DNA of 64,000 bases, taken from an uncultured Myxococcales bacterium (lineage in GTDB: Bacteria; Myxococcota_A; UBA9042; DTJE01). The notes beneath the pieces are model-generated. The model was not told the origin of the DNA. It did not search any database and saw only the letters and a list, made by a program, of their open reading frames with translations. The stretch is from the NCBI GenBank assembly GCA_903857665.1, contig CAIOFV010000069.1, positions 10,381 to 74,380 of the forward strand, in the 5' to 3' direction. This document shows positions 3,961 to 64,000 of the stretch, in pieces. The translations under genes were made by a program, and so were the position numbers. How positions within the stretch are numbered: position 1 is the stretch's first letter; every line of letters begins with the position of its first letter.

Positions 3961-3982
3961 GCCCGCACCGCCCCGGAACGCG

Positions 3983-5026: not shown

Positions 5027-5132
5027 GTCAACCCTCGCTGCTGCCGGACCAGCGTAGCCGGAACGGGTGCCGAACGCCAAGGGGACGGGCACGCGGGACG
5101 CGCGGCCCCGGGGAAAGCGGCGGTTCGCGCGG

Positions 5133-6050
5133 TCAACAGTGCGCGTCCAGCCAGCCGATCAGGTCGCGGACGGCCTCGTCCCGGGCCGGGTCGTGGAAGA
5201 CCTCGTGACGGGCGCCCTCGTAGTATCTTTCGGTGACGTCGGTCAGGCCCAGCCCCCGGTAGCGCGCGGCCAGCGCCCGGACGCCGCGGCCGCCTCGGGA
5301 CACCGGGTCGGCGGTGCCGGTGATGGTCAGGACGGGCAGCCCCTTCGGGACGCGCGCCTCGGCGGAACGGCGCCAGGTCGCCTGCAGCAGGCGCACCAGT
5401 TCCAGGAAGAACGAGTTGGGGCACGGGAAGCCGCACCGCGGGTCGTCCACGTATCGCCGGACCTCATCGACGTCCCGGGACAGCCATTCCTTGCCCGTGG
5501 CGCCCGGCTCGAAGGCCTTGTTCAGGCCGCCGACCGACAGCTTGTCCAGCAGGACGGCCTGTCGATCCGGGCCACGCGAGGCCACCACCAGCCGTGCCAG
5601 CACCACGCCCGGGCCCACCAGCGGGTCCGAACCGTTGGAACCGCTGAGGATCAGGCCCTTCAGGATGGATCCCCACTGCTGGGCGTACGCCTGCGCCAGG
5701 AACGACCCCCACGAATGGCCCAGCAGGAACAGGGGCTGGCTGGGAAACGTCGCCCGGATCGCATCGGACAGCACGTGCAGGTCGCACAGCACGCCCTTCC
5801 ACCCGGCCGGTCCCAGGCGACCCAGGTCCCCGTCGTCCTTCACCGAGCCGCCGTGGCCCCGATGGTCGTCGGCGTAGACCGCGTAGCCGGCATCGACCAG
5901 CGCGAGGGCGACAGCCTCGTACCGCGCCGCGTGTTCCTGCATGCCGTGGGCGATCTGCACGACGCCCCGCACCGGGCCGTCGGGCGACCACCGCAGGCAG
6001 TACATCCGCCGGCCATCGCAGCGCTCCAGCTCGAACGACGTCGACGTCAT
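5133..6050 (-). CDS. Alpha/beta hydrolase, lysophospholipase / monoacylglycerol-lipase-like
   Basis: Nucleophile elbow GHSWG, HGxxEH-type motif (IAHGMQEHAARY), length of about 305 aa. The ATG at 6050 follows a GGAGG ribosome-binding site. Confidence 0.7.
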   Translation of the reverse strand: MTSTSFELERCDGRRMYCLRWSPDGPVRGVVQIAHGMQEHAARYEAVALALVDAGYAVYADDHRGHGGSVKDDGDLGRLGPAGWKGVLCDLHVLSDAIRATFPSQPLFLLGHSWGSFLAQAYAQQWGSILKGLILSGSNGSDPLVGPGVVLARLVVASRGPDRQAVLLDKLSVGGLNKAFEPGATGKEWLSRDVDEVRRYVDDPRCGFPCPNSFFLELVRLLQATWRRSAEARVPKGLPVLTITGTADPVSRGGRGVRALAARYRGLGLTDVTERYYEGARHEVFHDPARDEAVRDLIGWLDAHC

Positions 6051-6175
6051 GTCGTGTTCCTCCCCGGGGTCATCGTAGCCCTGCACCGCAGGGGATTCAA
6101 GGCGCGCGGGCCGCATCCTTGCCTCCCCCCCCGTGCGCATGCTACTCCGTAGGGGAAGGAACGAAGGAATTCGAA

Positions 6176-24418: not shown

Positions 24419-27400
24419 ATGAAGCTCCGCAGTCGTCATCTTGGAACGCTGGTTCTCGTCTGCGCAGCCTTCGCCCTGGCGCAGGGTTGCTCCAGTTCGT
24501 CCGACGAGAAGGACGTCGCGACGGACCCGGGGCTGGGCAGCCAGGACACCGCGGCCGACCTCGGGCTCGACCTCGGGCTCGACGTCGGGCTCGACACCGG
24601 GCTCGACGTGCCGGATTCGCCGACTGCGACTCCCGACACCGGCTCCAGCGCCGCATCAAGGCGCCAGTCGGCGGCGACCCAGGCCTGTACCCAGCCGGTC
24701 AACGACCTCGTGATCAACGAGTTCAGCGTCTACTCGGCGTCGGGCCGGCAGTGGATTGAAATCTACAATCCCACCGCCCTGGCCATCGACCTGAAGGGCT
24801 GGACCGTCGGGAACGGGACCTCCAGCTTCACGATTCCGGTGACCGTCAACATCGCCGCGACCGGGTATGCCCTGCTCTGCAGCGACGGCGACGCCGCCTG
24901 CAGCTGGGGGCCCTGGGACACCGGGTTCGCCCTGGCGACGGCCAATGCCTCCATCACCCTGCAGAACAAGGTCCCAGCGACCGTCAACAGCATCGACTAC
25001 TCCAGCAACACCATTCCCGCCACGGGCGGAACGATCGAGTTGAAGAACGCCTACAAGGACAACGCGACCCTGTTCAACCAGGACGGCTCGCTGAACGCCA
25101 GCTTCTCGCTGTCCACCGCCGCGCTGGGCACCCCCGGCGTCAAGAACGACAACTGGGTCGTGGTCGAGGACCCGACCTGCTCCGACGACGGCAACATCTG
25201 CACCTTCCAGGTCTGCGAGAAGAGCGTCTGCACCTACGTCCCCGACATGACGTGCTGCCAGTCGAACTCCGACTGCCAGTCGAACACCGATTTCTGCCTG
25301 GTGCCGTTCTGCAACGTGAACGCCCACAAGTGCGAAAACGGCCGCAAGGCCAACTGCTGCACCCAGAACTCGGACTGCAACGACAACATCGCCTGCACGA
25401 CCGACTACTGCCTGTTCAACCAGTGCCAGTTCACGCTCGGCCCCGACTGCTGCATCGTCGATTCCGACTGCCCCAGCAAGGGCTTCTGCTCCGCAACGCG
25501 CTGCGGGACGGTCACGGCGAACCATTGCACCACGACCACCATCCCTGCGCCCGCCTGCTGCACCAGCCCGACCGACTGCAAGGATGACAATCCCTGCACG
25601 TTCGACAACTGCGACGGCAGCGCCCACAAGTGCGTGTTCAAGCAGATCCCCAACTGCTGCCTCAAGGACACGGATTGCAACGACGGCAACCCGTGCACCC
25701 TGGACACCTGCGTCATCAACGCGTGCCGTCCGATCTGGCAGACCGAGCAGTGCTGCTATGACGATCCCCAGTGTGCGGCGCAGGACACGAACCACAAGAT
25801 CTGCACCGACGACAAGTGCGTGCTGGATTCCGCCAGCGGGCACTACACCTGCATCACTCCCTTCAAGCCGGACTGCGCACTGCCCCTTCCCTACATCCAG
25901 TTGTTCAACAACGCCCAGTCCTTCACGGGCATCAACTGGGAACTGATCGACTACGGGACCTCCACCAGCCGCAACTGGTCGTTCGCGTACGGCTTCGGCG
26001 ACCTGGGTCCCGACGGGCACCTGATGTTCAACTGGAGCCCGACCGTCATCAACGTCAAGACCGTCGCCGTGACGCCCACTCTGGACGCCTCGACCGCGGC
26101 CAACGACGGCTTCAACTCCACCAAGAGCACGACCCTTCAGTGGCGGATGGCCTACCACCACAAGAATCCCGGCGCGACCATCAAGATCCGGGTCCGGATC
26201 TCCACCCTCAACGATTTCTCGACGCCCGGTAACTACAAGGAAGTGTACGTCAAGGACGCCATCGACGACGTGCCCTACGCCCTTTACTCCTACCAGCTGC
26301 CGGCGCCCGAAAAGGATGCCCAGAACCTCCGCGTCGGCTTCATGCTGGACACGGGGACCTCGCTGGCCGGTACCGCCAGCATGGATTCCCTGGAAGTCGA
26401 TGACGTGAAGGTGGCGTCCGGCGTGCCCTCCCGCCTGTGGAAGTACCGCCTGGTCCGCTGCACCGGAACGGAGGCAGAGGGCTGCGACAATGAAAACCAC
26501 TACGTCGCCGTGGACGAACTGGACGAGCAGCAGATCAAGGACGGGCAGGTGCCCTCGCTGACCGCCGGCGTCTGCGACTGGTACCGCGTCTACATGTGCA
26601 TGTACGACCAGGACGGATCCCAGACCACCTGGAACTTCTTCGGATTCCCGTCGTCCTACATCGACGGCCCGCCGATGGATCAGCCCTCCTTCATCCAGGC
26701 CCCCTACCCCTGGGGCGAAAACACCGGCTGTTCGACCTTCCCGCAAACCGTCCAGGGGATCTGCAACAGCCCGCTGACGGGCCCCGGCTACTACGTGTGC
26801 GCCCTCGACATCAAGCCGGATTGCTGCAATCCCACTGCGCCCGCGGACTGCGCGGTCAAGGCCGCCGGCGCGTACCTCCCGGCCCTCGTGACCAAGGACG
26901 AGGATGACCCGGGCAAGCAGCTCCACAGCCCCTTCGAAACCCAGACCAAGTTCGCCGTCACCCTGTTGATCCAGGACGGCTACCTCGTGTGGTCCCCGAA
27001 CGGCCGCAACGATCCGGCCGCCAATGCCATCGCCAACACCATCATGACCACGCGTGATCCGCGCGACAACAACAACTTCCGCAAGGCGCAGATCGTGGTC
27101 AACCTGAACCTCCTGTCGGATGCCGACCTGGCGCGCTTCCGCGGCGTCTTCGCGGTCCTCGGCGTGTCGGGGAACAACCATGTCGTGTCGGTGACGGAAG
27201 CGGCCACCCTCAAGCGCTACATGGACCAGGGCGGCCGGATGTACCTGGAAGGCGGCGACTTCTTCTACACGTCGACCCGCCCCGGCGCGCAGTTCAAGAC
27301 GGTCCTCCACGACCTGTTCAACATCGACTCGACCTCCGGCGGCCTCCCCGTGCTGGATGGCCCCATCGCCGGCCGCAACTTCCTCGATGGCTACTCGTTC

Positions 27401-30400
27401 GACTACGTGTCGGGAAGCCCGCATTTCAACTCGTATCTCGATCGGCTCGTGCACCGGGCCGCTTCGGGCAGCCGCGAAATCATGCGGAACGCGGGCACCA
27501 CCGCATTCGCGACGGCCATCTCGTTCGAAAGCACCCCGGCGACCCAGTCGGCTCCGTTCTACCGCACCATCGGTTCGTCGATCCTCTTCGGCGGCCTGGT
27601 CGAGCAGACGGGCCACACGACGCTCGTCAACCTGATGAGCCGGTACCTGGACTTCCTGGAAGTCGGCTATCCCGACTGCCTGACGGCTGCCAACTGCCAG
27701 GACGACGAGGCCTGCACGTCCGACACGTGCCTCCCGGCCAATGCCGAGAACCATCGGCTTTGCGGCTACTCGCTGCCCGCGGGCATGCTCACCTGCACGC
27801 CGTGCAAGAACGACGTCGAGGTCAAGGTCGGCAACGCCTCGGTCTGCGGCCTGAACGAAGCCTGCAACGTCGCGCTGGGCTACTGCGTCCCGATTCCGTT
27901 CCAGACGCGCTTCGACGCGGAAACCGGCACCGCCACGGGCTGCGGCGACTTCTTCGGCGACGCGGACGCCCACCCCGAGGCGCCGGCGTCGTCTTCCTGC
28001 ACTGCCACCGTCACGACCTCCGGCATCCTGGAAGGCATCCAGGTCAAGGCGAAGATCCCGCACCTGTACCGTGGCGACGTCCAGTTGTCCCTGACCAGCC
28101 CGAGCGGCACCGAGGTCAGGCTGAAGCCCGCGAACCCGCTGGACGCGGCCCCGAACATCTACGCGACCTACGACGTCGGCGTCCCGTCCGACCAGCCCCT
28201 GTCCAAGTACCTTGGCGAGCGCCTTCTGGGCGCCTGGACCCTGAAGGCCCTGGATACGTCGCCGACGTTCGCCGGCGGCACCATCCAGGAGTGGCACCTG
28301 TACACCCGTCAGCGCGCGGTCTCCTGCACCACGATCGCGGACTGCGGGGACGACCCCTGCGCCGCCAACGTGACCTGCGAGGACACGACCGTCCCGCCCG
28401 ACGGCGTCAAGGAATGCAAGTACCAGCCGCTGTGCGATGACTCCAACGTCTGCACGCTGGACGTCTGCACGCCCGGGACCCACATGGTCGGTGGGACCGC
28501 GGTCCCGAACACCGCCATGGCCACGGGTTCCTGCGCCTACAACACGATCCCGGGCGCGAACTGCTCCTGCACGAAGCACGACGACTGCCTGGCCGATCAG
28601 GCCTGCCTGAACCTCGCGCAGACGGCCACCTGCGCGGGCGAAGTGGATTGCCGGTGCGCCCCGGTCCCGGGCACCCCGCACGAACTGAGCCTGCCCTCGC
28701 CGCTGCCGATCCCCGACAACGACGCCGTCACGGGCGTCACCCGGTCCCTGACCATGACGGGCACGTCACCGATCAGCATCGTGAAGATCCGCATCGCGGT
28801 GAATCACCCGGCCGTCGAGGATCTTCGCGCCCGCGTCTGCCACCTCAGCACCTGCGTCACCTTGCGCAACGTCCGCCACAAGGGACTGATCGGCGGCGTT
28901 GACATGGAGGCGGCAGGCTTCCACGACGTGTACGACTTCGACGCCGTGGACGGCCCCGGCACCCTTCAGGACTTCCGCCGCCTGGCCGTTGCGGGCGCGT
29001 GGACAGTCACCCTCTTCGACGTGGTCCCGGGCAACACCGGCACCTTGCGGCGCTTCAATATCTATACGCAGGAGGCGGAGTGCTTCAGCGACTCCGACTG
29101 CTCGGACAACAACGCGTGCTCCACGGACACGTGCCGCGCGACCCCGAGTGGCGCGGGCATCTGCCTGCATACCTTCAAGGTCTGCCCGATGCCCGCCCTG
29201 CTGCCTGGCATCAGCGCGGACTGCGTCCAGACCCCGCAGTGCGTCGCGGCCACTGGGGTATGCCCGACCTCGACGACCCTGACCTTCAAGGACATCGGGA
29301 CGGCCTGCGAGGACGGGTTGTTCTGCACGGCGAACGACACGTGCGACGCGACCGGGCATTGCCTGGCCGGCGGTGCGCGGGATTGCTCGGGCGTCAGCGG
29401 CGCCTGCACCGAGGGGTGGTGCGACCCGGCCCTGTCCGAAACCACCCACCAGTGCCAGATCCGCAACCGCGCCGACGGCTTCGCATGCAATGACGGCGAG
29501 GCCTGCAATGGCGCCGACAGCTGCCTGGCGGGCGTCTGCAAGAGCGGCACGGATTGGATCTGTCCCTGCCAGGTCGATGCCAACTGCGTGGACGACGGCA
29601 ACCTGTGCAACGGCGACACCTGGTTCTGCAACGCCAGCAAGCTCTGCCAGCTGGACCTCGTGAACCACCCGGCGAAGCAGGACTCCTGCCTGTCCACCGG
29701 CCCCTGCCAGAAGAGGACCTGCGAACCGGCAACCGGGCTCTGCAAGGACACCTTCGCTCTTGCGAACTACTTCCCGTGCGACGACAACCGGTACTGCACG
29801 CTGGGCGACTACTGCCTGAGCGGCGTGTGCATGGGCGGCGATCTTCGCGACTGCTCGACGATGGCGCTGCCGGACGGGATGTCCGAAACGTGCGGAACCC
29901 GCCAGTGCGTGGGCACGCTGCCGGACTCGGGCTGCCAGTTCGTCCCCGAGGCGAGCACCAAGCCCTGCGACACCAACAGCCTGGGTTGCGACCTCGAGCA
30001 TTGCAGCAACGGCGCCTGCATCAACACCGATTGCGGCCCCTTCGACAACTGCACCATCGTCGGGGGCAAGGCGACTCGTGACTGCACGTCCTACGTGGAT
30101 GACTGCAACACGGCGGCCTGCCAGGAACTCGGCGGCGGCCTCGCGGCTTGCAAGCGTACGGCCAAGGGCGACGGGACCACCTGCACGCCGGACGCCGTCG
30201 ATTGCACCACGGACACCTGCCAGGCGGGCATCTGCAAGCACGACCGGCCGGCGACCTGCCCCGGCAAGATCTGCGGCGGGCGTCACCCGTACGACGCCGG
30301 CGACGACATGTGCGGCTTGCAGGATTCCTGCGTCCACCCGGCCCTGTCGCCGGTCGATCAGCAGAACGGCCTGTGCACCACGACCTGCGACCCGGCGCAG

Positions 30401-33400
30401 GATTGCCAGTCCTTCGCGTCAGGGCTTGTGGACCTGCCGATCATCGACTGGGCCCGCGTCGGCACCTGCGCCACCAGCAGCATCGTGATCCCCGCCGGCT
30501 ACCCGTTCACGTACGTCAAGTCGCTCCAGGCGAAGGTCCGCCTGTCCCACAGCTACCTGGGTGACCTGTTCATGACCCTGAAGGATCCGCAGGGATACAC
30601 CCACCCGATCTGGAACATGATCGGCGGCGCCAACGACGGGTTCGCGGACACCTTCGAACTGTCGTTCAACGTGCCCAACCGGGTCAACGACCCGGGCACC
30701 TTCACGGATGGCCGCGACATTGCGGGCGCCCCGATGTGCTCCTTCCAGGGCGAGTTGGCCCGGGGTTCCACCGGGACGTGGACGCTGGAAGTCTGCGACT
30801 ACGGCCTGACCAACAGCGGCGTCCTGCACGACTGGACCCTGGCCGTCCAGGGCACCAACAGCAACGCGAACCTCAACAGCGGCCACCGCTGCGAGGACGC
30901 GATCGATCTGACTCCCGTGTCCATCGGCCCCGACCCGCTGGTCTGGCCGGTCGCGACCGACTCCACGAAGTGCGGCATCAACGTGCTGTACAACTCCGGG
31001 TACGGCAAGACCGAAGGGCCCGAGCGCTGGTACAAGATGGTTCTGGACAAGGCGACCCGCGTCAAGGTGACGCTGAACCAGCCGATCCGCGACCTGGCGC
31101 TGATCCTGAAGGGCGGGCCCAGCGCGTCCTGCGCGACGGCGCCGGTGGTCGGCGGCAGCAATGCCTACCTGCCGATCAACCACCAGCCCGAGTACTTCAA
31201 CCTGCCGCTGCAGGCGGGCACGTACTTCCTGGCCATCGACACCGTCAGCGATCCCGTGCTCCCCAGCCTGGACCTCATCTCCAGCCGGCTCGCCGTGATG
31301 GACAACCTGTTCAACTACGGTCCGTACATCTTCGATATCAGCATGGAACTCCTGAGGGAGAACGGCAACACCTGCGGGAACAGCGAGTCCTGCCTCAGCA
31401 ACTACTGCGACGGCAAGTTCTGCTGCGACAACAGCCTGGGTACCAACCCGACGTGCTGCCCCGGCGCCTTCCCGGCGGACGGGGAGTCGTGGACGCTGGG
31501 CGCCGGCGCCATCCCGGTCGAAACATCGCTGTTCGAGTCGGCGAAGACGGTCTGCGGCGTGACGGCGCTGGCGGTTTGCCACAGCAACCAGCCCGGTTTC
31601 CTGCCCTGCGAGGGTCGCCGGGTGTTCCCGAACTGCAGCGTCGGCCACGACTGCTTCGAGGACGTCAGCAACGAGGCGCGGGACGACACGGCCTGCACGC
31701 CCCCCGTCGTGGTCAACGGCGCGCTCACCGGAGGCGTGACGGCGTATCACTGCGGCTACTACGACGACGTCTTCTGCGACGCAGGATTGCTGCAGACTCC
31801 GGTCACCTGCAAGACCGAGTGCGCGAGCGATGCGGACTGCAAGCACACGCCGGTCTATCCCGGCCAGTACAACCATTGCGAGGAAACCAACCCTGTCACC
31901 CACAAGATGGAATGCGTGCCGGACCGCGACAAGGGCGAACGTTGCGGCAGCGCCCATGAGTGCATCTCGGAATTCTGCGGAGTGAACAACCTCTGCTGCA
32001 TTCCCGGCAAGGTCTGCTGCCCGAGCCCCGACCCGCTGAATGGCCCCTTCACCAACGGCGCGGTGTGCCCGGATACGTTCCTCGGCATCACACTCAGGGA
32101 CTGGACGACCAAGACCTGCAGCACCCAGACCGAGTGCATCGGGCAGCGCACCGATCCCTTCTGCAGCGCCATCAAGGAATGCGTGCCCAAGTACCCGCGG
32201 GACGATTGCGGTTGCCAGGACGTCAAGCGGAACTGCACCCTGGTCAACGTCTTCTACGACGCACCCGAGTGCTTCGCTGACGCCGAAAAGACCACGTACT
32301 GCGCCGACGTCCCGATCGTCGCCGGCATCGAGCGACATGGCCCGACGGCCCCGGACTGCTTCACCAATTGCCTGGTTACCAGCAACCACGTGGTGGGTCC
32401 GCTGGGAGGCGTGGTCGATTGCTCGACCGACATCGAACCGGTCTGCAACGACACCGGGACCAACGGCCTGGAAACCGGCTTCCACTGCCTCCCGGACAAC
32501 CCGTCCTGCTGCTGCCAGGACGACTCCAAGTGCATCTACCTGGCCCACTGCGCGCCGGTTTCGGGCGCCCTCAGTTGGAAGCAGAAGTCCTGCGATGGCC
32601 CGATCCCGAACGGCGGCATGTGCAACCGCGGGCCCGACTGCGTGAACAAGAACTGGCTGCCGGCCCCCTACAGCGGCAAGAACGGCGGCTACTGCAACCA
32701 CAACGTCTGCTGCAACGGCGGCAACTGCTGCCTGACGGACAGCGTCCCGGGCATGTCGACGTTCTGCGCGGCGCAACCCGCGGACTGCAATGATCCGTTG
32801 AACTGCCATGGCCGCTTCTTCACGAACACCTGCAACCCGCCGCCGACCGGGTACGACATCCACAACCAGGATCTCGTGGATCCGTTGCTCTGGGACAACT
32901 GGAACGAGCGCGGCTCCCTGTTCACCTGCACCGAGAACATCGTGTCCGAGGACGACACGCAGTGCACGGGCGTGACGTCCAACACCTGCCCGAACTACTT
33001 CGCGTCCTACGTCTGCAAGGGCTCGGGCGCCGACGACCACCCGAGTCCGGCCGTGCTGAACCTGGGTGACCCGGACAACCGCTGCCGGACGGACTGCAAC
33101 AAGGCCCTTTGCGTGAAGGGGACGACCTCCTGCCTGCTCTGCTACGGCGTCCCGGGCGACGATCCGAACTGCTGCCCGCCCGACAACCCGGCCTGCTGCT
33201 GCGAGGACAACAGCGCCTGCAACCCCGCCGTCGGGCACTGCGACCCGAATCCCGCGAACCAGACGATTTCGGTCTGCGCGGCGAACGGCGTGTTCAATGA
33301 CCCGTGCAACGAGAATTCAGACTGCGGCACCGGCCTGCTCTGCCTGCTCCATTACTGCTGCACGTCGGCCCGCCTGACCGAGTGCAAGGGCTACCAGGTC

Positions 33401-39930: not shown

Positions 39931-40003
39931 TGGGCCCATAGCTCAATTGGTAGAGCAGCGGACTCTTAATCCGGAGGTTGAAGGTTCGATTCCTTCTGGG
40001 CTC
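39931..40003 (+). tRNA. tRNA-Lys (anticodon CTT)
   Basis: 73 nt. The 7-bp acceptor stem GGGCCCA/TGGGCTC pairs. D-arm GCTCAATTGGTAGAGC. Anticodon loop CTCTTAA with U33 and A37. T-arm GAAGGTTCGATTCCTTC. CCA is not encoded. Confidence 0.9.
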
Positions 40004-40028
40004 ACTGACGTGACGTAGGCACGGAGAA

Positions 40029-42020: not shown

Positions 42021-43922
42021 ATGGGGGTTCGGGACACAGTCCAGGGAAGGCCGGAAATCCTGGCCCCCGGCGGAAGCCTCGAGGCCATCGAGGTCGCCGC
42101 GGGCCACGGCGCGGACGCGGTGTATGCCGGCATCGGGACCCTCAACGCGCGCGCCCGGTCCGCCAACCTCACCGAAGCCCAACTGCCCGGGGTGATCGAC
42201 TTCCTTCATGGTTCGGGCACGAGGCTGTATGTCCCCATCAATGTGCCGCTGCGACCCGAAGACCGCGAGGAAACGGCGCGCGTGCTGGCCCTGTGCGAAG
42301 CCGGCGGCGTCGATGCGGTGATCCTGCGGGACCCGGCGTTGATGCGGCTGTGCCGCGACCGGTTCCCCGCCCTCGCGATCCACGCCAGCACCCAGGCCGG
42401 CGTCCATTCCGTCGAAACCGCCCGGCGGGCGGCCGAACTGGGCTGCCGACGGGTGATCCTGGCCCGTGAATGCAGCCGCGACGACATCGCCCGGATCCGC
42501 GACGCCCTGCCGGACCTCGAGGTGGAGGTCTTCGTCTTCGGCGCGCAGTGCTTCGCGGTGTCGGGGCTGTGCCTGCTGGGCGAGGCGACCACCGGCCGCT
42601 CCGGGAACTACGGCGCGTGCTCGCAGGCCTGCCGGCTGCCGTACACGGACGAGTCCGGCCGGAACGTCGGGCATCCCTTCAGCATGAAGGACCTGGACCT
42701 GGTCGGGGACGTGCAGGCCCTGGTGGACCTGGGCGTGGCGGCGCTGAAGATCGAGGGCCGCATGAAGTCGCCCGCGTGGGTCGGATGCGTGGTTTCGTGG
42801 CTGCGAAAGGCCGTGGACCGGCCGATCCCCGGCCTGTCGTCGGAGGAGCTGGACGCGTTCCACCGCGACGTGTCGGTGCTGTTTTCGAGGCCTCGGACCG
42901 GCGGGTTCTTCCACGGGCGCACGGACGCCGCCGATCAGATCGACGTCGATGCGCCCGGCCACCGGGGATGCGACGTGGGCGACGTGAGGACGCGATCGAC
43001 GCCCGAGGGCCAGATCCTGTGCTTCCGGACGCCCGTGGACCTGAACATCCGGGACGGGTTGCTGCTGGAGCTCTCCCCCGAGCGCGGAGGCAGAGGCGAC
43101 GGGTTTGCCAAGGAAACGCTCGCCGGAGGCGGAGCCGCCTCGGGTGCCTCCAGAACCCATGCCCCGGAAGCACCGGGCGGCATCGAGTTCGTGCCGCTGG
43201 GCATCCGGGAGCTGTTCGACGAGCAGCGTCGCCCCGCGATGCGGCTGCCCGCCGGGAGGAACGTGGAAATCCCAGTCGATGTCCGTCGGCCCGTCGCCCG
43301 GGTCGCAATCCACTCGTCCGACGGCGTCCGGGTCCGCTACGACCGCGTCGATCGCCGCGTGCCGGGAACGGTCGTCGAGGGCCACCCCCCAACACCGCGG
43401 TTCGAGGCGGTCGAGATCCGGGCCGACCGGATCCGGGCCACCCTGTCCCGGGGGCGCGTGCGCCGCGTGCTGGAACTGCCCGTCGCGTCCCAGCCCGCCC
43501 GGGGCGAGGGCCTGTCGTGTTCCCGGCTGCAGAAGCATTTCGGCGACGCAGCCTACGACCTGGATCCGGGCCTGTTCGTGAACCCGTCGGACCTGAAGCA
43601 GGTGCGGCGGGCGATGGAGGCGTCCTTCGAGGCCGAAGTGGCGGCATCCGTGGCCGCGAAGGCCCGCGAGGCCATCGAAGCGCTGGTCGCGGATCCGCAG
43701 CCGCCGCCGCGGACCGACGCCGAACTGCTGGCGAAGGGCCCTGCCGCGATCAGCCGCGTGACGGGCATGGGAGGCAGGATCATCGTCGCCCCGAACGGGA
43801 CCCGGTTCGAACTGGTGCCGACGGCCACGGGCACGACGGTGCGCCTGGCGAGCGCTGGATTCCGCAAGCCCGACGCCCCTCCCGACGGCCCCGATGCGGA
43901 TCCCGCAGAATCGCCCGATTGA
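42021..43922 (+). CDS. Peptidase U32 family protein, long form (RlhA/YdcP-like, about 633 aa)
   Basis: U32 core (VDAVILRDPAL, ALKIEGRMKSP and conserved Cys residues) followed by a C-terminal extension of about 250 aa. AGGAGA ribosome-binding site. Confidence 0.75.
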   Translation: MGVRDTVQGRPEILAPGGSLEAIEVAAGHGADAVYAGIGTLNARARSANLTEAQLPGVIDFLHGSGTRLYVPINVPLRPEDREETARVLALCEAGGVDAVILRDPALMRLCRDRFPALAIHASTQAGVHSVETARRAAELGCRRVILARECSRDDIARIRDALPDLEVEVFVFGAQCFAVSGLCLLGEATTGRSGNYGACSQACRLPYTDESGRNVGHPFSMKDLDLVGDVQALVDLGVAALKIEGRMKSPAWVGCVVSWLRKAVDRPIPGLSSEELDAFHRDVSVLFSRPRTGGFFHGRTDAADQIDVDAPGHRGCDVGDVRTRSTPEGQILCFRTPVDLNIRDGLLLELSPERGGRGDGFAKETLAGGGAASGASRTHAPEAPGGIEFVPLGIRELFDEQRRPAMRLPAGRNVEIPVDVRRPVARVAIHSSDGVRVRYDRVDRRVPGTVVEGHPPTPRFEAVEIRADRIRATLSRGRVRRVLELPVASQPARGEGLSCSRLQKHFGDAAYDLDPGLFVNPSDLKQVRRAMEASFEAEVAASVAAKAREAIEALVADPQPPPRTDAELLAKGPAAISRVTGMGGRIIVAPNGTRFELVPTATGTTVRLASAGFRKPDAPPDGPDADPAESPD

Positions 43923-58723: not shown

Positions 58724-59014
58724 TCAGTCGGCACCTGGGGTGGACGAGCCGTCGATGACCTGGACGACGGCCGCGTCAACCAGCACGTCACGGCTGCCCG
58801 GCGACTCGGCGTTGCGGGCGCCGCTGCCGAACGCCACCACCACCGTGTCGCCCTGCCCGGCATCGAGGAGGTCCGTGGCCACCACGACCCGCCCCGTCGG
58901 TCGCTCGCCGTCGGACGTCACGCAGGTTTCGGCGACCAGCAGCAGCTTCCTGCCCGCGAGGCGCGGGGCCTTCTTCGTGGCCCAGACCTCCCCCATCACC
59001 CGGCCGCGAATCAC
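58724..59014 (-). CDS. EutN/CcmL/PduN-family protein (bacterial microcompartment vertex, BMC-P), paralog 3
   Basis: N-terminus (V/M)IRGRVMGEVWATKK, with ...DAGQGDTVVVAFGSGAR...DAAVVQVIDG collinear with CcmL/EutN. The GTG start at 59014 overlaps the upstream stop (GTGA). 97 aa. Confidence 0.75.
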   Translation of the reverse strand: MIRGRVMGEVWATKKAPRLAGRKLLLVAETCVTSDGERPTGRVVVATDLLDAGQGDTVVVAFGSGARNAESPGSRDVLVDAAVVQVIDGSSTPGAD

Positions 59015-59433
59015 GTCAGTGCTCCTGCTCCCCCCGAGCGCGCAGGCGCCGGCGACGGGTTTCCGGCGGAAACTCTCGCCGAAGACGAAGCCGACTCGGG
59101 GACATTCAATAGACTTTCCGGCGCGTGCCCCGGCGCGAAGGCGAAGGCCGGCCCGCCGGCGTCCCGGAGGACCTCGACGCCATCGACGATCGCCGCGATG
59201 GACGCCTCCACCGGGGTCCGGGTGTCCCCCAGCGCAAGGCGCGCCGGCAGGCCCATGCAAACCACCACGTCCTGCCCGACCTCCGCGCCCACCGGGTCCA
59301 CGCAGACCAGGTGGTCCGAAGGATGATCGGGGTCGTACCACGCCAGCGGCTGCACCAGCAACAGCTTCTGTCCGTCCAGGCGAGGGCTGTGCCGGGTCGC
59401 CCAGCACTGGCCGATGACGCGTCCCAGGATCAC
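59011..59433 (-). CDS. EutN/CcmL-family protein, paralog 2, with a C-terminal extension of about 50 aa
   Basis: MILGRVIGQCWATRH...VGAEVGQDVVVCMG...ASIAAIVDGVEV. GTG start with an AGGGGGA ribosome-binding site. The tail is encoded partly by repeat element A. Confidence 0.7.
   Translation of the reverse strand: MILGRVIGQCWATRHSPRLDGQKLLLVQPLAWYDPDHPSDHLVCVDPVGAEVGQDVVVCMGLPARLALGDTRTPVEASIAAIVDGVEVLRDAGGPAFAFAPGHAPESLLNVPESASSSARVSAGNPSPAPARSGGAGALT
59030..59107 (-). repeat. Copy A of the 78-nt structured repeat element (minus sense)
   Basis: CCCCGAG...CTCGGGG terminal inverted repeats and an internal GGCGAG-AGTTTCC / GGAAAC-CCGTCGCC hairpin. About 80% identical to copies B and C. Confidence 0.6.
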
Positions 59434-59762
59434 GGCGCCGTCCCCCTGGCCGTGGCCTCGACCACCGCCTCGTCCACGATCGCGATCACGCAGGCCTTGG
59501 TGGTCGCCTCGGGCCCGATCACCAGGTCGCGCACCCGGCTTCCGACACCGATCAGCACCAGTTGCCCCACGTCAGCCCCCAGCGGGTCCAGGGCCAGCAT
59601 CGACGACTGCCGGAGGTGCCCGTCGTCGCAATCCGCGGAGAACCGGGTCCCGTCACGCGCCATCGCCAGCCCCAGAGGGCGGACCTCGACGACCCGGCGG
59701 CCGTTCATGCCGTCGGATTGGTTCGCGCCCCACACGGTGCCGACCACGCGGGCGAGCTTCAT
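59430..59762 (-). CDS. EutN/CcmL-family protein, paralog 1
   Basis: MKLARVVGTVWGANQ...VGADVGQLVLIGVGSRVRDL...ACVIAIVDE. ATGA overlap with the upstream gene. 110 aa. Confidence 0.8.
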   Translation of the reverse strand: MKLARVVGTVWGANQSDGMNGRRVVEVRPLGLAMARDGTRFSADCDDGHLRQSSMLALDPLGADVGQLVLIGVGSRVRDLVIGPEATTKACVIAIVDEAVVEATARGTAP

Positions 59763-60274
59763 TTCTTCGAGTTCCTTTCCTGGATCAGCCGGGCCAGGGC
59801 CGCGGCCTCCTCGTTGACGATCTCGGCGGCATACGAATAGATGACGCGCTCGGCCACGGCACCGATGATGAACACCTGGACCTTCAGTTCGCCCGACAGG
59901 ATGCGGCGGGTCCGGCCCGGCCCGGCGGACTCGAACTGCATGTCGCCGTGGTTTTTCAGGAGTTCCGCCACCTTATGGGTTGTCGGCACGTTGACGTACG
60001 TCGCGGTGCCGCGCACCAGGTCCAGTTTGGATTCCTCGACCCATTCCATCCACCGGGGCTCGATCTTCTTGGGACCCACCGAATGGATCTTCGGAACGGG
60101 CATGTACCGGACCTTGCGCACGATCCGGCCGGGTTCCTCGGCCCACGAAAGCGTTTCGGCTTCCTGGACGTGTGTCATCCTCGGTTTGAGGACCTCGATC
60201 ACCCCCTTTTCGAACATGATCTTCATCAGGGTGTCGCGGTCGCAGGCGAACTCGTGCTCGAAGCGGTACTTCAT
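59759..60274 (-). CDS. Hypothetical protein, possibly SRPBCC/DUF2505-like (171 aa); first gene of the EutN-paralog operon
   Basis: The ATG at 60272-60274 follows a GGAGG ribosome-binding site. N-terminus MKYRFEHEFACDRDTLMKIMFEKG. Confidence 0.45.
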   Translation of the reverse strand: MKYRFEHEFACDRDTLMKIMFEKGVIEVLKPRMTHVQEAETLSWAEEPGRIVRKVRYMPVPKIHSVGPKKIEPRWMEWVEESKLDLVRGTATYVNVPTTHKVAELLKNHGDMQFESAGPGRTRRILSGELKVQVFIIGAVAERVIYSYAAEIVNEEAAALARLIQERNSKK

Positions 60275-60381
60275 GGCAGGACCTCCGTTGCCCCCGGCCG
60301 CCTTGTCCGACCGGCCCGGGCATGATACCGTTGGGGTGGTCCCGATGGCAATCCCCGCTCCGGCGCGAGCGGGCGCCGTAT

Positions 60382-60459
60382 CTCCCCGAGGGCGTATTCG
60401 CAGGCGACGGGTTCCCGTAGGAAACTCTCGCCGGAACCGAAGCCGACTGGGGGGCATCC
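60382..60459 (-). repeat. Copy B of the 78-nt structured repeat element (minus sense)
   Basis: Same architecture as copy A. Lies in the intergenic region between the SRPBCC-like gene and rluB. Confidence 0.6.
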
Positions 60460-60498
60460 GTGATGGGCGTCCTGTCGCGGACCCCGGAGGAACAACCC

Positions 60499-62304
60499 AT
60501 GATTCGTCTGCAACGCTACCTCGTCGAGGGCGGCAAACTGTCCAGGCGCGAGGCCGAGGAACGGATCGCCCAGGGGCGCGTCACCGTCAACGGGACGGTC
60601 GCCGAGCTTGGCACGATGATCGACCCGGACAACGACCGCATCAAACTGGACATGGAAACGGTCCGTCCGACGCGGCATCACATCGTGCTGGTGATGCACA
60701 AGCCCAAGGGGGTGGTCTGCAGCGAAAAGGACCCCGAGGGGCGCCGCAACGCCAACTCGCTGCTGCCGGACCTGCCCGTCCGGGTCCATACCATCGGCCG
60801 CCTGGACATCATGAGCGAAGGCCTTCTGCTGTTCACCAACGACGGCGACCTGACCCGGCAATTGACGCAGTCGGGCAGCGGCGTCGAACGGGTGTACGAG
60901 GTCAAGATCCAGGGCGGCGTTCCCGCCTGGGCGATGGAACGCATCGAGCGCGGCGTGAACCTGGAGGACGGGCGGGCGAAGGCGGCGTCGTGCAAGCGCC
61001 TGCGGCTGGCCCGGACCAACGAGTGGCTCGAGGTCGTGATGACCGAGGGCCGGTATCGCGAAGTGCGACGCATGTTCCAGACGCTCGGCATGAACGTGCT
61101 GAAGTTGAAGCGCGTGCGGTTCGGGCCGATCCGCCTGGGCAAGCTGCCGGCAGGGGCATCGCGGATCCTGACGCCGGACGAAGTCACGGCGCTGACCGAG
61201 AACCGGCCGCCGAAGCCCGTGCGACCCCCGAAGAACCAGCGGGCGGCACGAGGGACACGGTCGTCACGGGCCGGAGTGCCCGAGCGGCAGGGCAAGCCCG
61301 CCGGGGCCGAGAAGCCGGAACGGACGGAAAAGGCCGGGACGACCCGGTCGCCCGACCGCCCGGCGCGCACCGGTCGGACGGCGCGACCGACGGTGCCAGC
61401 GGCTCCGTCCGAGCGGTCCCAGTTGCCGGGGCACGCGACCCCGCCCGAACCCGGGTTCAGGGGCGTGCGTGGCACGCGTCCGGCACGTCCGGCGCGGCCC
61501 GAAGCCACGGAGCGTCGGCCCCGGACGTTGCACGGCGGGACCGCGCCGATGCGCGGGAGGCCCGAGACGGCTCGCGGAAGGTCGGATGCCGAACGTGGGC
61601 GGCCGGACGCCTCGCGGGGGAGGCCCGAGGCGCCACGCGGCCGGCCGGAAGCGACACGCGGTCGGCCTGCCGCGGCACAGGGGAGGCCGGAACTCGAGCG
61701 ACGCCCGCCACGGGAGCCGGCGCGCAGGTTCGATGCGGGTCGGGATTCGGGTGATGAGGACTACGTGGGCGACAGCGGCGCGGCCGCACGGCGCTTCGAA
61801 GCCGAAGTGGCGGATGCCGTCCGGAAGGCTGCGGCCCTGAAGGGGGCCCGTCCCGCGACACGGATCGACGGAACCGGCCAGGGCGCCCCGGATCGGGGCC
61901 ATGCTGCGAGCACGGGGGCACCGCGAGCGACGTCCGACCGAGGCGCCGGCCGAGGCCCGGGTCGCGGCGGACGCACCGGCGGATCCGGCTCACGACCCGG
62001 CTCGGCGGCTCGTCCCTCGCGGCCCGAAGGTCGCCCGGACAGAACCGGCTCTGCCGCCCGTCCCTCGCGGCCCGAAGGTCGCCCGGACAGATCCGCCGCA
62101 CCTGCCCGTCCATCGCGGCCCGCAGGCCGTTTGGAGCGGTCCGAAGCCTCTGCCGAGCGCCCCGCACGCACCGGGCGCCCCGCGCACCACGGCGGACGGC
62201 CGGCCAAGACGTCGCGCTCCCCCGCGAAGCCCGTCGCCCGGCCGAAGAAGCCTTCCGGCAAGCCGCAGCGCTCCCTGCACGCCAACAAGCCTCAGAAGGT
62301 GTAG
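60499..62304 (+). CDS. rluB: 23S rRNA pseudouridine synthase RluB-like, with an Arg/Pro-rich low-complexity C-terminal tail of about 370 aa
   Basis: S4 domain (RLQRYLVEGGKLSRREAEERI) and a PseudoU_synth_2 core (VHTIGRLDIMSEGLLLFTNDG with the catalytic Asp). GGAGG ribosome-binding site. The tail carries tandem peptide repeats. Confidence 0.8.
   Translation: MIRLQRYLVEGGKLSRREAEERIAQGRVTVNGTVAELGTMIDPDNDRIKLDMETVRPTRHHIVLVMHKPKGVVCSEKDPEGRRNANSLLPDLPVRVHTIGRLDIMSEGLLLFTNDGDLTRQLTQSGSGVERVYEVKIQGGVPAWAMERIERGVNLEDGRAKAASCKRLRLARTNEWLEVVMTEGRYREVRRMFQTLGMNVLKLKRVRFGPIRLGKLPAGASRILTPDEVTALTENRPPKPVRPPKNQRAARGTRSSRAGVPERQGKPAGAEKPERTEKAGTTRSPDRPARTGRTARPTVPAAPSERSQLPGHATPPEPGFRGVRGTRPARPARPEATERRPRTLHGGTAPMRGRPETARGRSDAERGRPDASRGRPEAPRGRPEATRGRPAAAQGRPELERRPPREPARRFDAGRDSGDEDYVGDSGAAARRFEAEVADAVRKAAALKGARPATRIDGTGQGAPDRGHAASTGAPRATSDRGAGRGPGRGGRTGGSGSRPGSAARPSRPEGRPDRTGSAARPSRPEGRPDRSAAPARPSRPAGRLERSEASAERPARTGRPAHHGGRPAKTSRSPAKPVARPKKPSGKPQRSLHANKPQKV
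61985..62140 (+). repeat. Tandem coding repeat of about 51 bp (about 3 units) in the rluB tail
   Basis: GCCCGTCCCTCGCGGCCCGAAGGTCGCCCGGACAGA.. is iterated, encoding SAARPSRPEGRPDR(T/S)G units. Confidence 0.5.
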
Positions 62305-64000
62305 AGCACCCCGAAGTGGATGTTGCCGACCTCTTCGCGGGCCGAGCACTTCCCCGTGGTTGAATCCACGCTCTTGCACCTGCGGTCCAGGATGATCCCG
62401 TAGTCGAGGCGGATCGGCACCACGCCGCCCAGCAGGTAGCGCAGGCCCACGCCGACCGAGTGGCGCAGCGACTTCGCGTGCAGGTCGGTCGGGCTTTCGG
62501 CCAGTGCGCCGACGTCATAGAACAGCGCGCCGTGGAGGTCGAGGCTGCGCAGGATCGGGAAGCGCAGTTCGAAGGTGCCCGACACCACCATGTCCCCGCT
62601 GTTGACCTTCGCGATCGTCGGGACCGTGACCGGCAGGCCGGTGCCAGGATCGACGTATACGGTGCCGTCCGCGTTCTTCTTCTGGCTGGTGGTCGTCTGC
62701 ACTCGCAAGCTGCCGTCGGAGTTGTACTGGGCCACCCCGTCGTTCGCGAACCCTCGCACCCCGCGGTTGCCGCCCAGCGAGTAGCGCTCCTCGGCGGGCA
62801 ACTGGCCCGCGCCGCCGAACGCCTTCGACCCGCCGTAGTGCGCGGTCAGGCCGATCGTGAGGAACTTCCGGATCGTCACGAAGCCCTTGAGGAGCACCTC
62901 GTACTTGAGGAAGTTCCCCTGGCTGAGCGCGTTGATGTACGCCAGCGAGACCTGTGCGAAGCCGCCGTTCTGCGGGTCGATCGGGTGATCCAGGCGGTCG
63001 TAGGTCAGCGTCGGGACGATCTTGTTTTCGTATCGCCACGACGAGTAGGTCGCATTCGGAATGCTGGGGTCGCGCGTCCGCACCACGCCGGTTTCCCAGG
63101 CCAGCGACCCGTACAGGTGCCTGACCAGCTCGCGAGACACGACGAACTCGGCCCCGAATTGCACCTGGTCGAGGCGCGAGGTGGCCCGGTCGTAGAGCGC
63201 GAACGGCGTCACGCGGAAGGAAAGGCCCTTGGAAAAGAAGTTGGGGTCCAGGTAGGTCGGGGCGAAGGACGCGTACCGGTCCCAGGCCGTGAACGACAGG
63301 CCGTACTTCACCGGCAGGTACAAGCGCTTCCCGCGACCCAGGAAGTTCTGGTCGACGTACCGGGCCTCGACCGTCAGGAGGATGTCCGGGAGGGGCAGGT
63401 CCAGCGTTCGGCCCGAACCCGACGTCGATACGTCCGAAAGGGCGATCGACGTCGACAGGCCGTCGGTGACGCCCTTGGGCAACGACGAATTCGGCCGGTC
63501 CCCGTTCAGCGTCTCGAAGCCGATCGCGAAGTCTACGAACTGGCTCTTCACCTCGCGGCACTCGACCACCAGCGCGACGCGGTCCCGCGGCGGGTCCTCG
63601 TCCGTGCCCAGGGCGGAAACCTGGACCGATGCGAAGATTCCGAGATTGTTCAGGAACCGCACGCCTTCGGCCACCCGCACCACGTCGTAGGGCTCACCGG
63701 GGCCGGGGAGGCGCGACGTGACGGTCTCGCGGATCGTGCGGTTGAGCCCCTGGACGAACACCGATCCGACCGTCGCCGGCGTTCCCTCGTCCACCGAGAT
63801 CCGCAGTGCGACGCTCCGGTCCGACACCTGTTCCAGGTCGCAGGAACCGTTGGATGCCCCCGAGGCGACTCCGTCTCCGGCGGGAGTTTCCTTCGGAAAC
63901 CCGCCGCCTGCGCCTGCGTGCTCGGGGGGGGGCACGTCCTCCGGGCCGCAGGCCACCTTCACCGAGGTCCGCAGGTAGCCCGCCGCCGCATACCACCGCG
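62292..64000 (-). CDS. bamA: Omp85-family outer-membrane protein assembly factor (BamA-like). The gene is partial: its N-terminus lies beyond the right edge of the window.
   Basis: C-terminal Bac_surface_Ag barrel (RYSLGGNRGVRGF, ALFYDVGAL, PIRLDYG, terminal ...GVLYTF) preceded by a POTRA domain. The frame stays open through position 64000. Confidence 0.8.
   Translation of the reverse strand, partial: RWYAAAGYLRTSVKVACGPEDVPPPEHAGAGGGFPKETPAGDGVASGASNGSCDLEQVSDRSVALRISVDEGTPATVGSVFVQGLNRTIRETVTSRLPGPGEPYDVVRVAEGVRFLNNLGIFASVQVSALGTDEDPPRDRVALVVECREVKSQFVDFAIGFETLNGDRPNSSLPKGVTDGLSTSIALSDVSTSGSGRTLDLPLPDILLTVEARYVDQNFLGRGKRLYLPVKYGLSFTAWDRYASFAPTYLDPNFFSKGLSFRVTPFALYDRATSRLDQVQFGAEFVVSRELVRHLYGSLAWETGVVRTRDPSIPNATYSSWRYENKIVPTLTYDRLDHPIDPQNGGFAQVSLAYINALSQGNFLKYEVLLKGFVTIRKFLTIGLTAHYGGSKAFGGAGQLPAEERYSLGGNRGVRGFANDGVAQYNSDGSLRVQTTTSQKKNADGTVYVDPGTGLPVTVPTIAKVNSGDMVVSGTFELRFPILRSLDLHGALFYDVGALAESPTDLHAKSLRHSVGVGLRYLLGGVVPIRLDYGIILDRRCKSVDSTTGKCSAREEVGNIHFGVLYTF
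63852..63930 (+). repeat. Copy C of the 78-nt structured repeat element (plus sense), inside the bamA reading frame
   Basis: GGATGCCCCCGAG...GGCGGGAGTTTCC-TTCG-GGAAACCCGCC...CTCGGGGGGG. The conserved stem has a UUCG loop. Confidence 0.6.

Follow-up and report, generated by a model that had tools for sequence, protein, structure and literature searches.

RPEs, as summarised in PMC10969869 (Ogata et al. 2000, 2002), are short palindromic repeats that lie in frame in unrelated and often essential genes. MIRUs, in the account given in PMC12548453, are short and often tandem repeats found at gene junctions and start codons, with an ORF that is coupled to the downstream gene through a -4 overlap. 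REP and REPIN sequences are imperfect palindromes of high copy number, which insert without target-site duplication and are mobilised by RAYTs (PMC3116915, PMC3337134), and the classical bacterial MITEs covered by the review PMC10969869 include Correia/NEMIS, ERIC, RUP and Nezha, with occasional in-frame fusions between MITEs and host ORFs among the cases it mentions. In-frame palindromes have so far been treated as a Rickettsia peculiarity, and junction-coupled repeats as a mycobacterial one. Here, we find both behaviors in a single 81-nt element of large, GC-rich, free-living genomes. It represents a hitherto undescribed family of small mobile DNA elements that form hairpins and are present in myxobacteria-like genomes. 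The family probably consists of non-autonomous palindromic mobile elements, built on this 81-nt unit, that combine RPE-like with MIRU-like behavior.

The element was recognised in a window of 64,000 nt (the whole stretch of DNA analysed) from an uncultured Myxococcales bacterium. A first-pass annotation had reported a repeat of about 78 nt in three copies within 5 kb and in both orientations. All three were recovered, at 59029-59109 (c1, minus strand), 60381-60461 (c2, minus) and 63850-63930 (c3, plus), although the unit proved to be exactly 81 nt, or 27 codons, and a fourth copy at 43073-43153 (c4, minus) had been missed. Self-comparison of the window gave 85% identity over 80 nt for the inverted-repeat arms 59030-59109/63850-63929, 80% over 76 nt for the arms 60384-60459/63852-63927, and 82% for the direct pair that starts at 59029 and 60381. 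A profile built from the copies matched them at E = 1e-21 to 3e-24 and found no further match in the window below E = 0.08, while the central 30-nt pattern occurs four times in the window against a chance expectation of 0.02. Since their flanks are unrelated, the copies do not belong to a single larger duplicated segment, an alternative that the annotation had itself raised.

Fourteen copies are present in the Myxococcales MAG Loclat_bin-06029, and the whole collection, drawn from the window, this MAG and lake metagenome contigs, comes to 49 copies at 44 places, with no ORF of its own carried by the 81-nt unit. The copies are scattered in unrelated contexts across several related Myxococcota-like genomes; the element-bearing genomes share 82-95% identity, and persistence of the element across them appears to be vertical. 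The related DNA comes mostly from metagenome assemblies, in which repeats can produce chimeras. Copies may be densely packed, with three in 5 kb of the window and five in 2.3 kb of locus L035. The viral contigs that were scanned contained 0 copies. Matches to the 30-nt pattern in Sphingomonas, Streptomyces, Desulfatitalea and Alphaproteobacteria are due to chance, and the element profile does not recognise them.

The unit follows the pattern (T/C)TGGATCGN-CCCGAG...CTCGGG-NGGA, has a G+C content of 70%, and carries TTGGAT as a conserved short motif at one end. It is an imperfect palindrome of 19 conserved pairs, comprising an outer stem of 7 bp (CCCGAG/CTCGGG plus one covarying pair) and a central stem of 12 bp around a loop of 3-4 nt, with non-complementary internal segments of 14 nt and 12 nt. 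The inverted CCCGAG/CTCGGG is subterminal, and outside it lie unpaired, non-complementary tails of 9 nt (5' TTGGATCGN) and 4 nt (3' NGGA). In c3 the central hairpin spans 63879-63908 (plus strand) and reads GGCGGGAGTTTCC-loop-GGAAACCCGCCGCC; the equivalent hairpins of the other window copies are at 59051-59080, 60403-60432 and 43095-43124 (all minus). The inverted ends and the internal hairpin with its variable loop, both noted in the first pass, are real features of the unit.

Across 47 copies, 96.8% of the cells in the stem pairs are paired, against 31-55% in slid controls, none of 500 shuffles reached the observed pairing score, and double changes occur in 6 of the 19 pairs (pair 12:82, for example, is GC in 20 copies, UA in 10 and CG in 5), although these covariation counts are inflated by the common ancestry of sub-families. 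Both stems are kept by compensatory substitutions, in agreement with the earlier suggestion of selection on structure. Single-sequence fold energies are ordinary when compared with dinucleotide shuffles of this GC-rich DNA (z 0.1 to -2.4), so that thermodynamics alone is uninformative and the evidence for the stems comes from the pair counts over the 47 copies and not from folding energy. An RNAalifold cloverleaf with two additional side hairpins was rejected, as those helices are 81-87% paired and contain many mismatches.

Two helices kept by compensatory changes, together with the several copies located in 5' leaders or between the genes of operons, would be consistent with a structured non-coding or cis-regulatory RNA motif selected at the RNA level, and a structured-RNA family had been one of the options offered by the first-pass annotation. 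However, 13-14 of the translated copies are antisense to their host gene and 7-9 are sense, and with both orientations represented there is no one strand of the element that is regularly transcribed as 'the' RNA. Coding sequence holds many of the copies, the fold energies are ordinary, a terminator-like T run is absent, and Rfam gave no match, either at gathering thresholds across the whole window or at E<=1 across 58950-60550. Selection of the element as an RNA is accordingly very unlikely, and the structured-RNA option was not upheld.

The earlier description of the element as not explained by coding features is misleading, as three of the four window copies (c1, c3 and c4) lie inside ORFs of recognisable genes. 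Copy c1 falls in the 3'-terminal part of the middle EutN/CcmL gene (59011-59433, minus strand; 140 aa, with the Pfam EutN_CcmL domain at residues 1-84), where the in-frame peptide is LNVPESASSSARVSAGNPSPAPARSGG (element sense, frame C). The extended ORF runs on to a TGA at 59011-59013 that overlaps the GTG start (59014) of the third EutN/CcmL gene (58724-59014, minus). EutN orthologues in L022 and L024, at 115-117 aa, are shorter at their ends by 23-25 residues and show the same stop/start overlap. Copy c2 is intergenic, between a divergent DUF2505 gene (start 60274, minus) and an RluB gene (start 60499, plus), and the spacer between these genes is 224 nt in the window compared with 107 nt in L022 and 170 nt in L024.

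Copy c3 is in frame in a BamA-like (Omp85) gene (62292-64000, minus strand, running past the window end; Pfam confirmed), where it is read in element antisense, frame A, and adds 27 residues, PPEHAGAGGGFPKETPAGDGVASGASN-like. The insert sits in a loop between two Cys residues, upstream of the last POTRA/Omp85 part, and is absent from all six aligned BamA orthologues; when the 81 nt are subtracted, the host is left with an 8-residue Cys-Cys loop, equal in length to that of its closest orthologue, P0128. Copy c4 lies in frame in a U32 family peptidase gene (42021-43922, plus strand; Pfam confirmed), is also read in element antisense, frame A, and adds approximately 27 residues (SPERGGRGDGFAKETLAGGGAASGASR). 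In the AlphaFold model of the U32 protein, pLDDT falls below 50 at residues 356-385, a loop between the strands 346-351 and 388-394, and disorder is predicted for the insert. The identical U32 protein is also encoded on a 3.2-kb ENA contig. The inserts are missing from the orthologues of BamA, EutN and U32. Searches for closer c1-c3 orthologues with the BamA and RluB proteins gave only relatives of at most 67% identity, and for this reason the empty c1-c3 sites are read from protein alignments and spacer lengths.

Context analyses with manual curation indicate that the element is part of a protein-coding ORF at about 20 of the 44 places (~45%), where both orientations and four of the six frames are used; translation of these inserts is suggested by their reading frames, by GC content at codon positions and by alignment with orthologues. 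By our own tally, 11-12 of the 44 places have in-frame copies at internal or N-terminal positions, and 9 have read-throughs at the 3' end, located at gene junctions with an ORF that stays open up to the next start. In-frame copies inside genes include those in BamA (c3) and U32 (c4) as well as in L010, L002, L047, L050, L035 and L011. At the junctions, the ORF upstream continues across the element and stops right next to the start codon of the following gene or in overlap with it, and an ATGA/GTGA stop-start overlap is seen in four of the read-throughs (c1, L036, L037 parA-parB and L039 ACP-KAS). Further hosts, named by motif inspection of ORF translations, include alanine racemase, ParA, ACP, a NuoF-like protein, radical SAM enzymes and a VIT-domain protein, while BamA and U32 were confirmed by Pfam domain matches. 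Of 47 copies, 26 are free of stops in all six frames, as are 17% of 81-mers drawn at random from genomic DNA and 5% of shuffles. The element was also considered as a source of Shine-Dalgarno sequences at both ends, an idea that was dropped because GGAG lies just outside the 81-nt unit in most junction cases.

Head-to-tail arrays have periods of 81, 81, 81, 81 and 84 nt. Arrays of 2-3 units (period 81 or 84 nt) occur in L035, L033 and L026, with other partial arrays elsewhere, and their copy number is variable; in one sub-family the unit keeps its length but has its boundary displaced by 5 nt. As the arrays are multiples of 27 codons, and the frame A peptide PPERAGxGDGFPxETLAGxxxASGxS recurs in 10-11 proteins, the repeat could in principle exist at the protein level, as a selected 27-residue peptide module duplicated among genes. 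This is extremely improbable: this DNA is read in four frames and in either orientation and is found between genes as well, what is conserved is its nucleotide sequence and base pairing, disorder is predicted for the insert, and the hosts are functionally unrelated.

The 81-nt element is or was mobile, since its presence or absence differs at orthologous sites. L010 contains a precise 81-nt (27-codon) insertion for which the orthologous L030 site is empty, with no flank duplicated, and at a second site 3.6 kb away the pattern is reversed between the two loci. The U32 gene of the window has its copy at codon ~351, and the U32 gene of L020, 93% identical to that of the window, has an independent copy of 81 nt elsewhere, at a position left unoccupied both in the window and in L021. 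Comparison of orthologous loci, a check proposed in the first pass, has revealed insertions that are polymorphic. L010/L030 is the one completely clean filled/empty pair; at two other 'empty' sites the relatives keep 12-21 nt identical to an element end, remnants that fit secondary deletion but could also mean homology-guided insertion.

Target-site duplication was absent from the L010/L030 insertion, and the flank alignments of other copies contained no flanking direct repeats. A possible 5-nt GGCGC repeat was seen at the L020 insertion. The window and ~400 kb of element-bearing loci yielded neither an autonomous partner nor a transposase, all-against-all BLAST of these loci gave no common IS-like repeat, and no longer element or parent IS with the same ends was present in the window or the related loci examined. 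When the neighbours of the partial copy in L011 were inspected for a partner gene, they proved to be AmmeMemoRadiSam genes only.

These data bear directly on the MITE/REP-like label of the first-pass annotation, which was right in pointing to a small non-autonomous mobile element but does not accommodate the missing MITE-type target-site duplication or the intragenic copies. A classical MITE, derived by deletion from an IS with a DDE transposase and moved by cut-and-paste via terminal inverted repeats, would explain the small size, the inverted CCCGAG/CTCGGG near the ends, the many dispersed copies and the lack of an encoded transposase. It is nevertheless a decidedly unlikely source, given that the clean insertion (L010/L030) has no target-site duplication, that the inverted repeats are subterminal with non-complementary tails, that exact head-to-tail arrays are atypical of the class, and that no locus examined contains a longer element with the same ends.

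A REPIN-like element served by a single-copy RAYT, and hence a true member of the REP/REPIN class, is a more serious candidate, if still a doubtful one. The long imperfect palindrome with two partly symmetrical arms, the absence of target-site duplication, the high density of copies and the apparently vertical persistence across genomes 82-95% identical are all as expected for this class. On the other hand, neither the window nor the ~400 kb of element-bearing loci revealed a RAYT, and ~45% of the 81-nt copies are inside ORFs, whereas REPs and REPINs are by definition extragenic. The arms are only about half symmetrical, with no obvious pair of identical REP 25-mers. The literature that we searched contained no paper linking RAYT or REPIN with Myxococcota, which also counts against this assignment.

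The element could alternatively be of benefit to its host, either as a site that acts in DNA or RNA (for protein binding, mRNA stabilisation or processing, as some REP, ERIC and Correia elements do) or as a translational-coupling cassette retained between the genes of operons, and spread by recombination. Nine copies exactly at gene junctions with an ORF open to the next start, a conserved hairpin and variable array copy number might all be expected of such a module. Yet orthologous junctions in relatives work without the element, the copies in the loops of BamA, alanine racemase and U32 cannot serve a junction function, and polymorphic insertion among close relatives would sooner be expected of passengers that are neutral or mildly deleterious, making a beneficial module unlikely.

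We therefore favor a family of non-autonomous palindromic mobile elements, and propose a model for its spread. In this model, the unit would fold, as single-stranded DNA or RNA, into the outer and central stems, and an enzyme supplied in trans would recognise the hairpin and copy the element. The mechanism would most likely be single-stranded, free of target-site duplication and of the HUH/tyrosine type, like that of RAYT-REPIN or IS200/IS605; it is the missing duplication and the hairpins that point to this, with no mobilising gene found in ~400 kb. The encoded peptides, rich in Gly/Ala/Ser/Pro, are likely to be flexible and to land in loops, linkers and tails. Copies in genes would survive because their length is a multiple of three, because they are stop-free in six frames (as holds for 26 of 47 copies) and because their peptides are flexible, and junction insertions would survive because translational coupling is preserved. 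These survival filters suggest that the element is mainly selfish DNA selected for translational neutrality, with the side effect that host proteins may gain loops of 27 residues or multiples thereof.

It is possible, and we put this forward tentatively, that the family represents an unrecognised class of 'translation-neutral', six-frame-open mobile hairpin that moves without target duplication through a single-stranded, circular or tandem intermediate of one unit, as hinted by the exact head-to-tail arrays and by the sub-family with the 5-nt boundary shift. If so, the element would systematically supply essential Myxococcota proteins with new surface loops, linkers and C-terminal tails and would keep the translational coupling of operons while uniting RPE-like and MIRU-like behavior, and the enzyme that moves it might be new or domesticated. 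More broadly, our results suggest that selection for translational neutrality is a general route for small mobile DNA into gene-dense bacterial genomes. There are practical consequences too, as copies inflate or split gene calls and can break metagenome assemblies, and the 27-residue inserts, predicted to be disordered, in BamA, alanine racemase, ParA and ACP confuse alignments and structure prediction. The family provides a tractable system in which to look for the enzyme of duplication-free hairpin transposition outside Proteobacteria, and is also suited to testing the co-option of inserted loops.

Each of the known systems shares part of this behavior. IS200/IS605-derived palindrome-associated elements have hairpin-dependent ends and insert without duplication, and ISDra2 inserts 3' of TTGAT, which the TTGGAT at the end of the 81-nt element resembles; this similarity is a lead only. 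The 81-nt element differs from them in having one compound hairpin in place of separate left- and right-end hairpins, and neither TnpA nor TnpB was seen. Like MITEs, it is small and non-autonomous with inverted ends, but it shows no target-site duplication in the clean case, its inverted repeats are subterminal, its length is an exact multiple of three, and far more of its copies are translated. With REPINs it has in common an imperfect palindrome that lacks both a target-site duplication and its own transposase and that persists in related genomes; REPINs, however, are extragenic and composed of two near-identical inverted REPs, whereas nearly half of the 81-nt copies are intragenic and the arms are partly symmetrical.

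The resemblance to MIRUs lies in the ATGA/GTGA overlaps at c1, L036, L037 and L039 and in the tandem arrays of variable copy number. MIRUs are non-palindromic and have a single orientation relative to transcription, whereas the 81-nt element is a hairpin found in both orientations and also deep inside coding sequences. As far as RPEs are described in the review, the likeness is that of a short palindrome in many copies, about half of which are in frame in protein genes at positions compatible with the fold, where they lengthen the protein by a peptide but leave it intact. The 81-nt element differs in its 70% G+C and its free-living Myxococcota-like genomes, as well as in its use of four frames, both orientations, tandem arrays and operon junctions. 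From this composition and the Myxococcota context, common descent of the 81-nt element with RPEs is implausible.

The three segments of about 78 nt that the first-pass annotation had read as a MITE/REP-like or structured-RNA family are genuine repeats. A repeat search of the window aligned 59030-59109 with 63850-63929 (80 nt, 85% complementary) and 60384-60459 with 63852-63927 (76 nt, 80% complementary), identified the copies starting at 59029 and 60381 as a direct pair of 82% identity, and revealed a fourth copy at 43073-43149. Each of these copies is matched at E = 1e-21 to 3e-24 by a profile HMM made from all four, which has no other hit below E = 0.08 in the 64 kb, self-palindromic echoes aside. 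For the central 30-nt pattern GGCGNGNGTTTCCNNNNNNAACCCGNCGCC, the window contains four occurrences against 0.02 expected. The flanks of the copies are mutually unrelated; the copies are therefore not fragments of one larger duplication, the case in which, according to the annotation, the repeat family would fall. The element has no match in Rfam at gathering scores or at E<=1.

The unit can be exactly defined because its limits are set by tandem arrays. Among the related loci used for comparison (L-numbers), L035 contains three head-to-tail units with a period of 81 nt, two-unit arrays elsewhere share this period, and the arrays of L033 and L026 repeat every 81 and 84 nt, respectively. The layout is (T/C)TGGATCGN - CCCGAG ... 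CTCGGG - NGGA, with information content falling to background beyond these limits in a flank analysis. Under the definition (T/C)TGGATCGN...NGGA the window copies c1 (59029-59109, -), c2 (60381-60461, -), c3 (63850-63930, +) and c4 (43073-43153, -) are all exactly 81 nt. In a 47-copy alignment, a model of two helices (a 7-bp outer and a 12-bp central stem) has 96.8% of its cells paired, compared with 31-55% when the helices are slid, and none of 500 shuffles matches the observed score. Six pairs are changed on both sides, including 12:82 (GC 20, UA 10, CG 5) and 37:59, where A-U becomes G-C eight times. Two additional side hairpins proposed by RNAalifold are unsupported by the alignment, and the folding energies of single sequences do not stand out for DNA of this composition. 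In a divergent sub-family (L020 4094-4178 and copies in L042, L026, L051 and L039) the unit boundary is displaced by 5 nt, leaving 4 nt ahead of CCCGAG and 9 nt (CGGGCTGCA) behind CTCGGG, with the insert still 81 nt long (84 in the L026 array). This shift at constant length is a hint of an intermediate of one unit, either circular or tandem.

Three of the four window copies lie within genes, as mapped by Pfam and orthologue comparisons. C4 is in frame within a U32 peptidase gene (42021-43922, +) and adds 27-29 residues that are missing in all nine aligned orthologues, one of them 93% identical. In an AlphaFold model of this protein (mean pLDDT 74.7), the insert residues 356-385 fall below pLDDT 50 and form a loop joining strands 346-351 and 388-394. 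C3 is in frame within a BamA-like Omp85 gene (62292 to past the window end, -), in a loop flanked by two cysteines; the insert is missing in six of six orthologues, and removing exactly 81 nt brings the loop back to 8 residues, its length in the closest orthologue. C1 occupies the final codons of the middle of three tandem EutN/CcmL genes (58724-59762, -), whose ORF passes through it to a TGA overlapping the GTG of the next gene. The protein is 140 aa long as opposed to 115-117 aa in relatives, with the same stop/start overlap in both. Only c2 is intergenic, in the divergent spacer between a DUF2505 gene (59759-60274, -) and an RluB gene (60499-62304, +), which measures 224 nt in the window and 107 and 170 nt in syntenic relatives.

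Several neighboring features may be recorded alongside. The stop of one EutN/CcmL (microcompartment vertex) gene overlaps the start of the next; the genes are flanked by an FG-GAP repeat protein gene and the DUF2505 gene, with other shell genes not adjacent, and relatives (L022/L024) keep this arrangement. At its C terminus the RluB-like pseudouridine synthase is extended by ~350 residues, rich in Arg, Pro, Gly and Ala and partly encoded by tandem repeats of 21 nt and 48 nt (61530-61697, 61994-62137); the orthologues found are only 242-435 aa. At ~25180-33233, several families of 35-78-nt direct repeats (D2, D5, D6, D8, D16) encode Cys-rich modules (C..D.N.C T.D.C), apparently inside one or more very large ORFs, and a tRNA gene (39932-40004, +; Rfam tRNA, 71.5 bits) lies upstream of the GMP-synthase/U32 region.

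Beyond the window, the MAG 'uncultured Myxococcales bacterium Loclat_bin-06029' contains 14 copies, recovered in a scan of species-representative genomes; a few pattern matches in other phyla are not recognized by the profile and are due to chance. Metagenome contigs, scanned once, contributed ~30 more copies, most of which come from a few JGI samples, and the viral contigs scanned contained none. In total, 49 copies at 44 places were analyzed, from collections that do not include the window's own genome. In the MAG contig L019, a long gene (~2650-7400) adjoining a copy displays extensive internal periodicity, seen as many shifted self-matches of 75-83%.

The presence/absence comparison proposed in the first-pass annotation as an indicator of mobility proved informative. 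L010 (MAG) and L030 (metagenome) are orthologous across 8 kb at 81-84% identity. A radical-SAM gene that is uninterrupted in L030 contains in L010, between two of its codons, an insertion of exactly 81 nt (27 codons), with no duplicated flank relative to the empty site. At a second site, 3.6 kb from the first, the situation is reversed: the copy is in L030 and is missing from L010. The window at 38-54 kb is 95% identical to L020 and 82-89% identical to L021; L020 lacks c4 but carries its own 81-nt copy elsewhere in the U32 gene, at a position empty in the window and L021. Repeated and fairly recent movement of the element is shown by these reciprocal differences, which separate close relatives, by the scatter of copies over unrelated contexts and by the arrays. 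Elsewhere, contigs L028 (1549-1633) and L036 (462-546) are identical up to the 3' end of a copy and then unrelated, a result either of recombination at the element or of chimeric metagenome assembly at the repeat.

Not all empty sites are clean. At the c4 site, L020 (~5040-5061) and L021 (~3240-3262) lack the unit, but native codons are replaced there by 20-21 nt identical to its end; L020 has the window sequence without 87 nt that lie between two GGC triplets. The 'empty' L010 site likewise retains a GGCTCGGGAGG remnant. From the sequences, we read these remnants as probable secondary microhomology deletions of older insertions. When the canonical 81 nt at c4 are taken out of the window, the result is ELTHAPEAPGGIEF, in agreement with the outgroup pattern xxPxxPGG. 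On the tree, however, this reading requires two deletions, or one deletion plus recombination, and homology-guided insertion is for that reason a possible alternative.

The more interesting property, overlooked in the first-pass annotation, is residence in frame within essential genes and at coupled gene junctions. Translation was called from codon-position G+C and open frames on both flanks, with manual curation. By our tally of the 44 places, the element is internal or N-terminal and in frame within ORFs at 11-12, is read through by the 3' end of an ORF that stops 2-27 nt later at nine, and is intergenic or undecidable, often on short contigs, at ~23. An ATGA or GTGA stop-start overlap is present in four junction cases (c1, L036, L037 and L039b). 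Hosts outside the window, named by eye from motifs in ORF translations rather than by domain search, include alanine racemase, a NuoF-like protein, an ABC ATPase, several radical-SAM enzymes, a VIT-domain protein and a lipoprotein linker, with ParA (followed by ParB) and acyl carrier protein (followed by ketosynthase) at junctions. Four of the six frames are used as protein: antisense frame A (PPERAGxGDGFPxETLAGxxxASGxS) at 10-11 places, sense frame C (PExASxxARVSxGNPSPxPARSGG) at seven, sense frame B at two and antisense frame D at one; the two arginine-rich frames are never used among the translated places. All six frames are stop-free in 26 of 47 copies, against 17% of random same-locus 81-mers and 5% of composition-matched shuffles.

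Because identical DNA is translated in four frames and is also present in intergenic positions, a protein-level module is unlikely. Both orientations are found in transcribed and translated positions, which makes a strand-specific RNA function unlikely too. The original 'MITE/REP-like structured repeat' reading was broadly right; its structured-RNA alternative is unsupported. Our results fit a non-autonomous palindromic mobile element subject to a filter for translational neutrality, through which its surviving copies have passed and which has probably shaped the element itself as well. Neutrality would stem from a whole number of codons, the lack of stops, flexible peptides and a stop/start arrangement preserved at operon junctions. 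The absence of a target-site duplication (TSD), the conservation of the hairpins and of their unpaired tails, and arrays in which units follow each other exactly head to tail suggest movement by a single-strand, hairpin-recognizing mechanism of the RAYT/IS200-IS605 type, a step that we infer, as no mobilizing enzyme was found in the window or in the element-bearing loci examined.

Compared with known systems, the element departs from each in a defining feature. Its intragenic behavior is most closely paralleled by the Rickettsia palindromic elements (RPEs), nearly half of whose copies are in-frame fusions with host ORFs (review PMC10969869), although RPEs are AT-rich and by composition unrelated to it. 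At gene junctions the closest analogue is the mycobacterial interspersed repetitive unit (MIRU), whose insertion at start codons gives an ORF coupled at -4 (PMC12548453); unlike MIRU, our element is palindromic and bidirectional. It resembles REPINs in its architecture and missing TSD but is not extragenic, the defining feature of REPs and REPINs, and it differs from classical MITEs in lacking both a TSD and strictly terminal inverted repeats. Literature searches returned no description of such an element in myxobacteria. The phenomenon has precedents; what is new is this combination of features, together with the exact 27-codon design and the lineage of the host.
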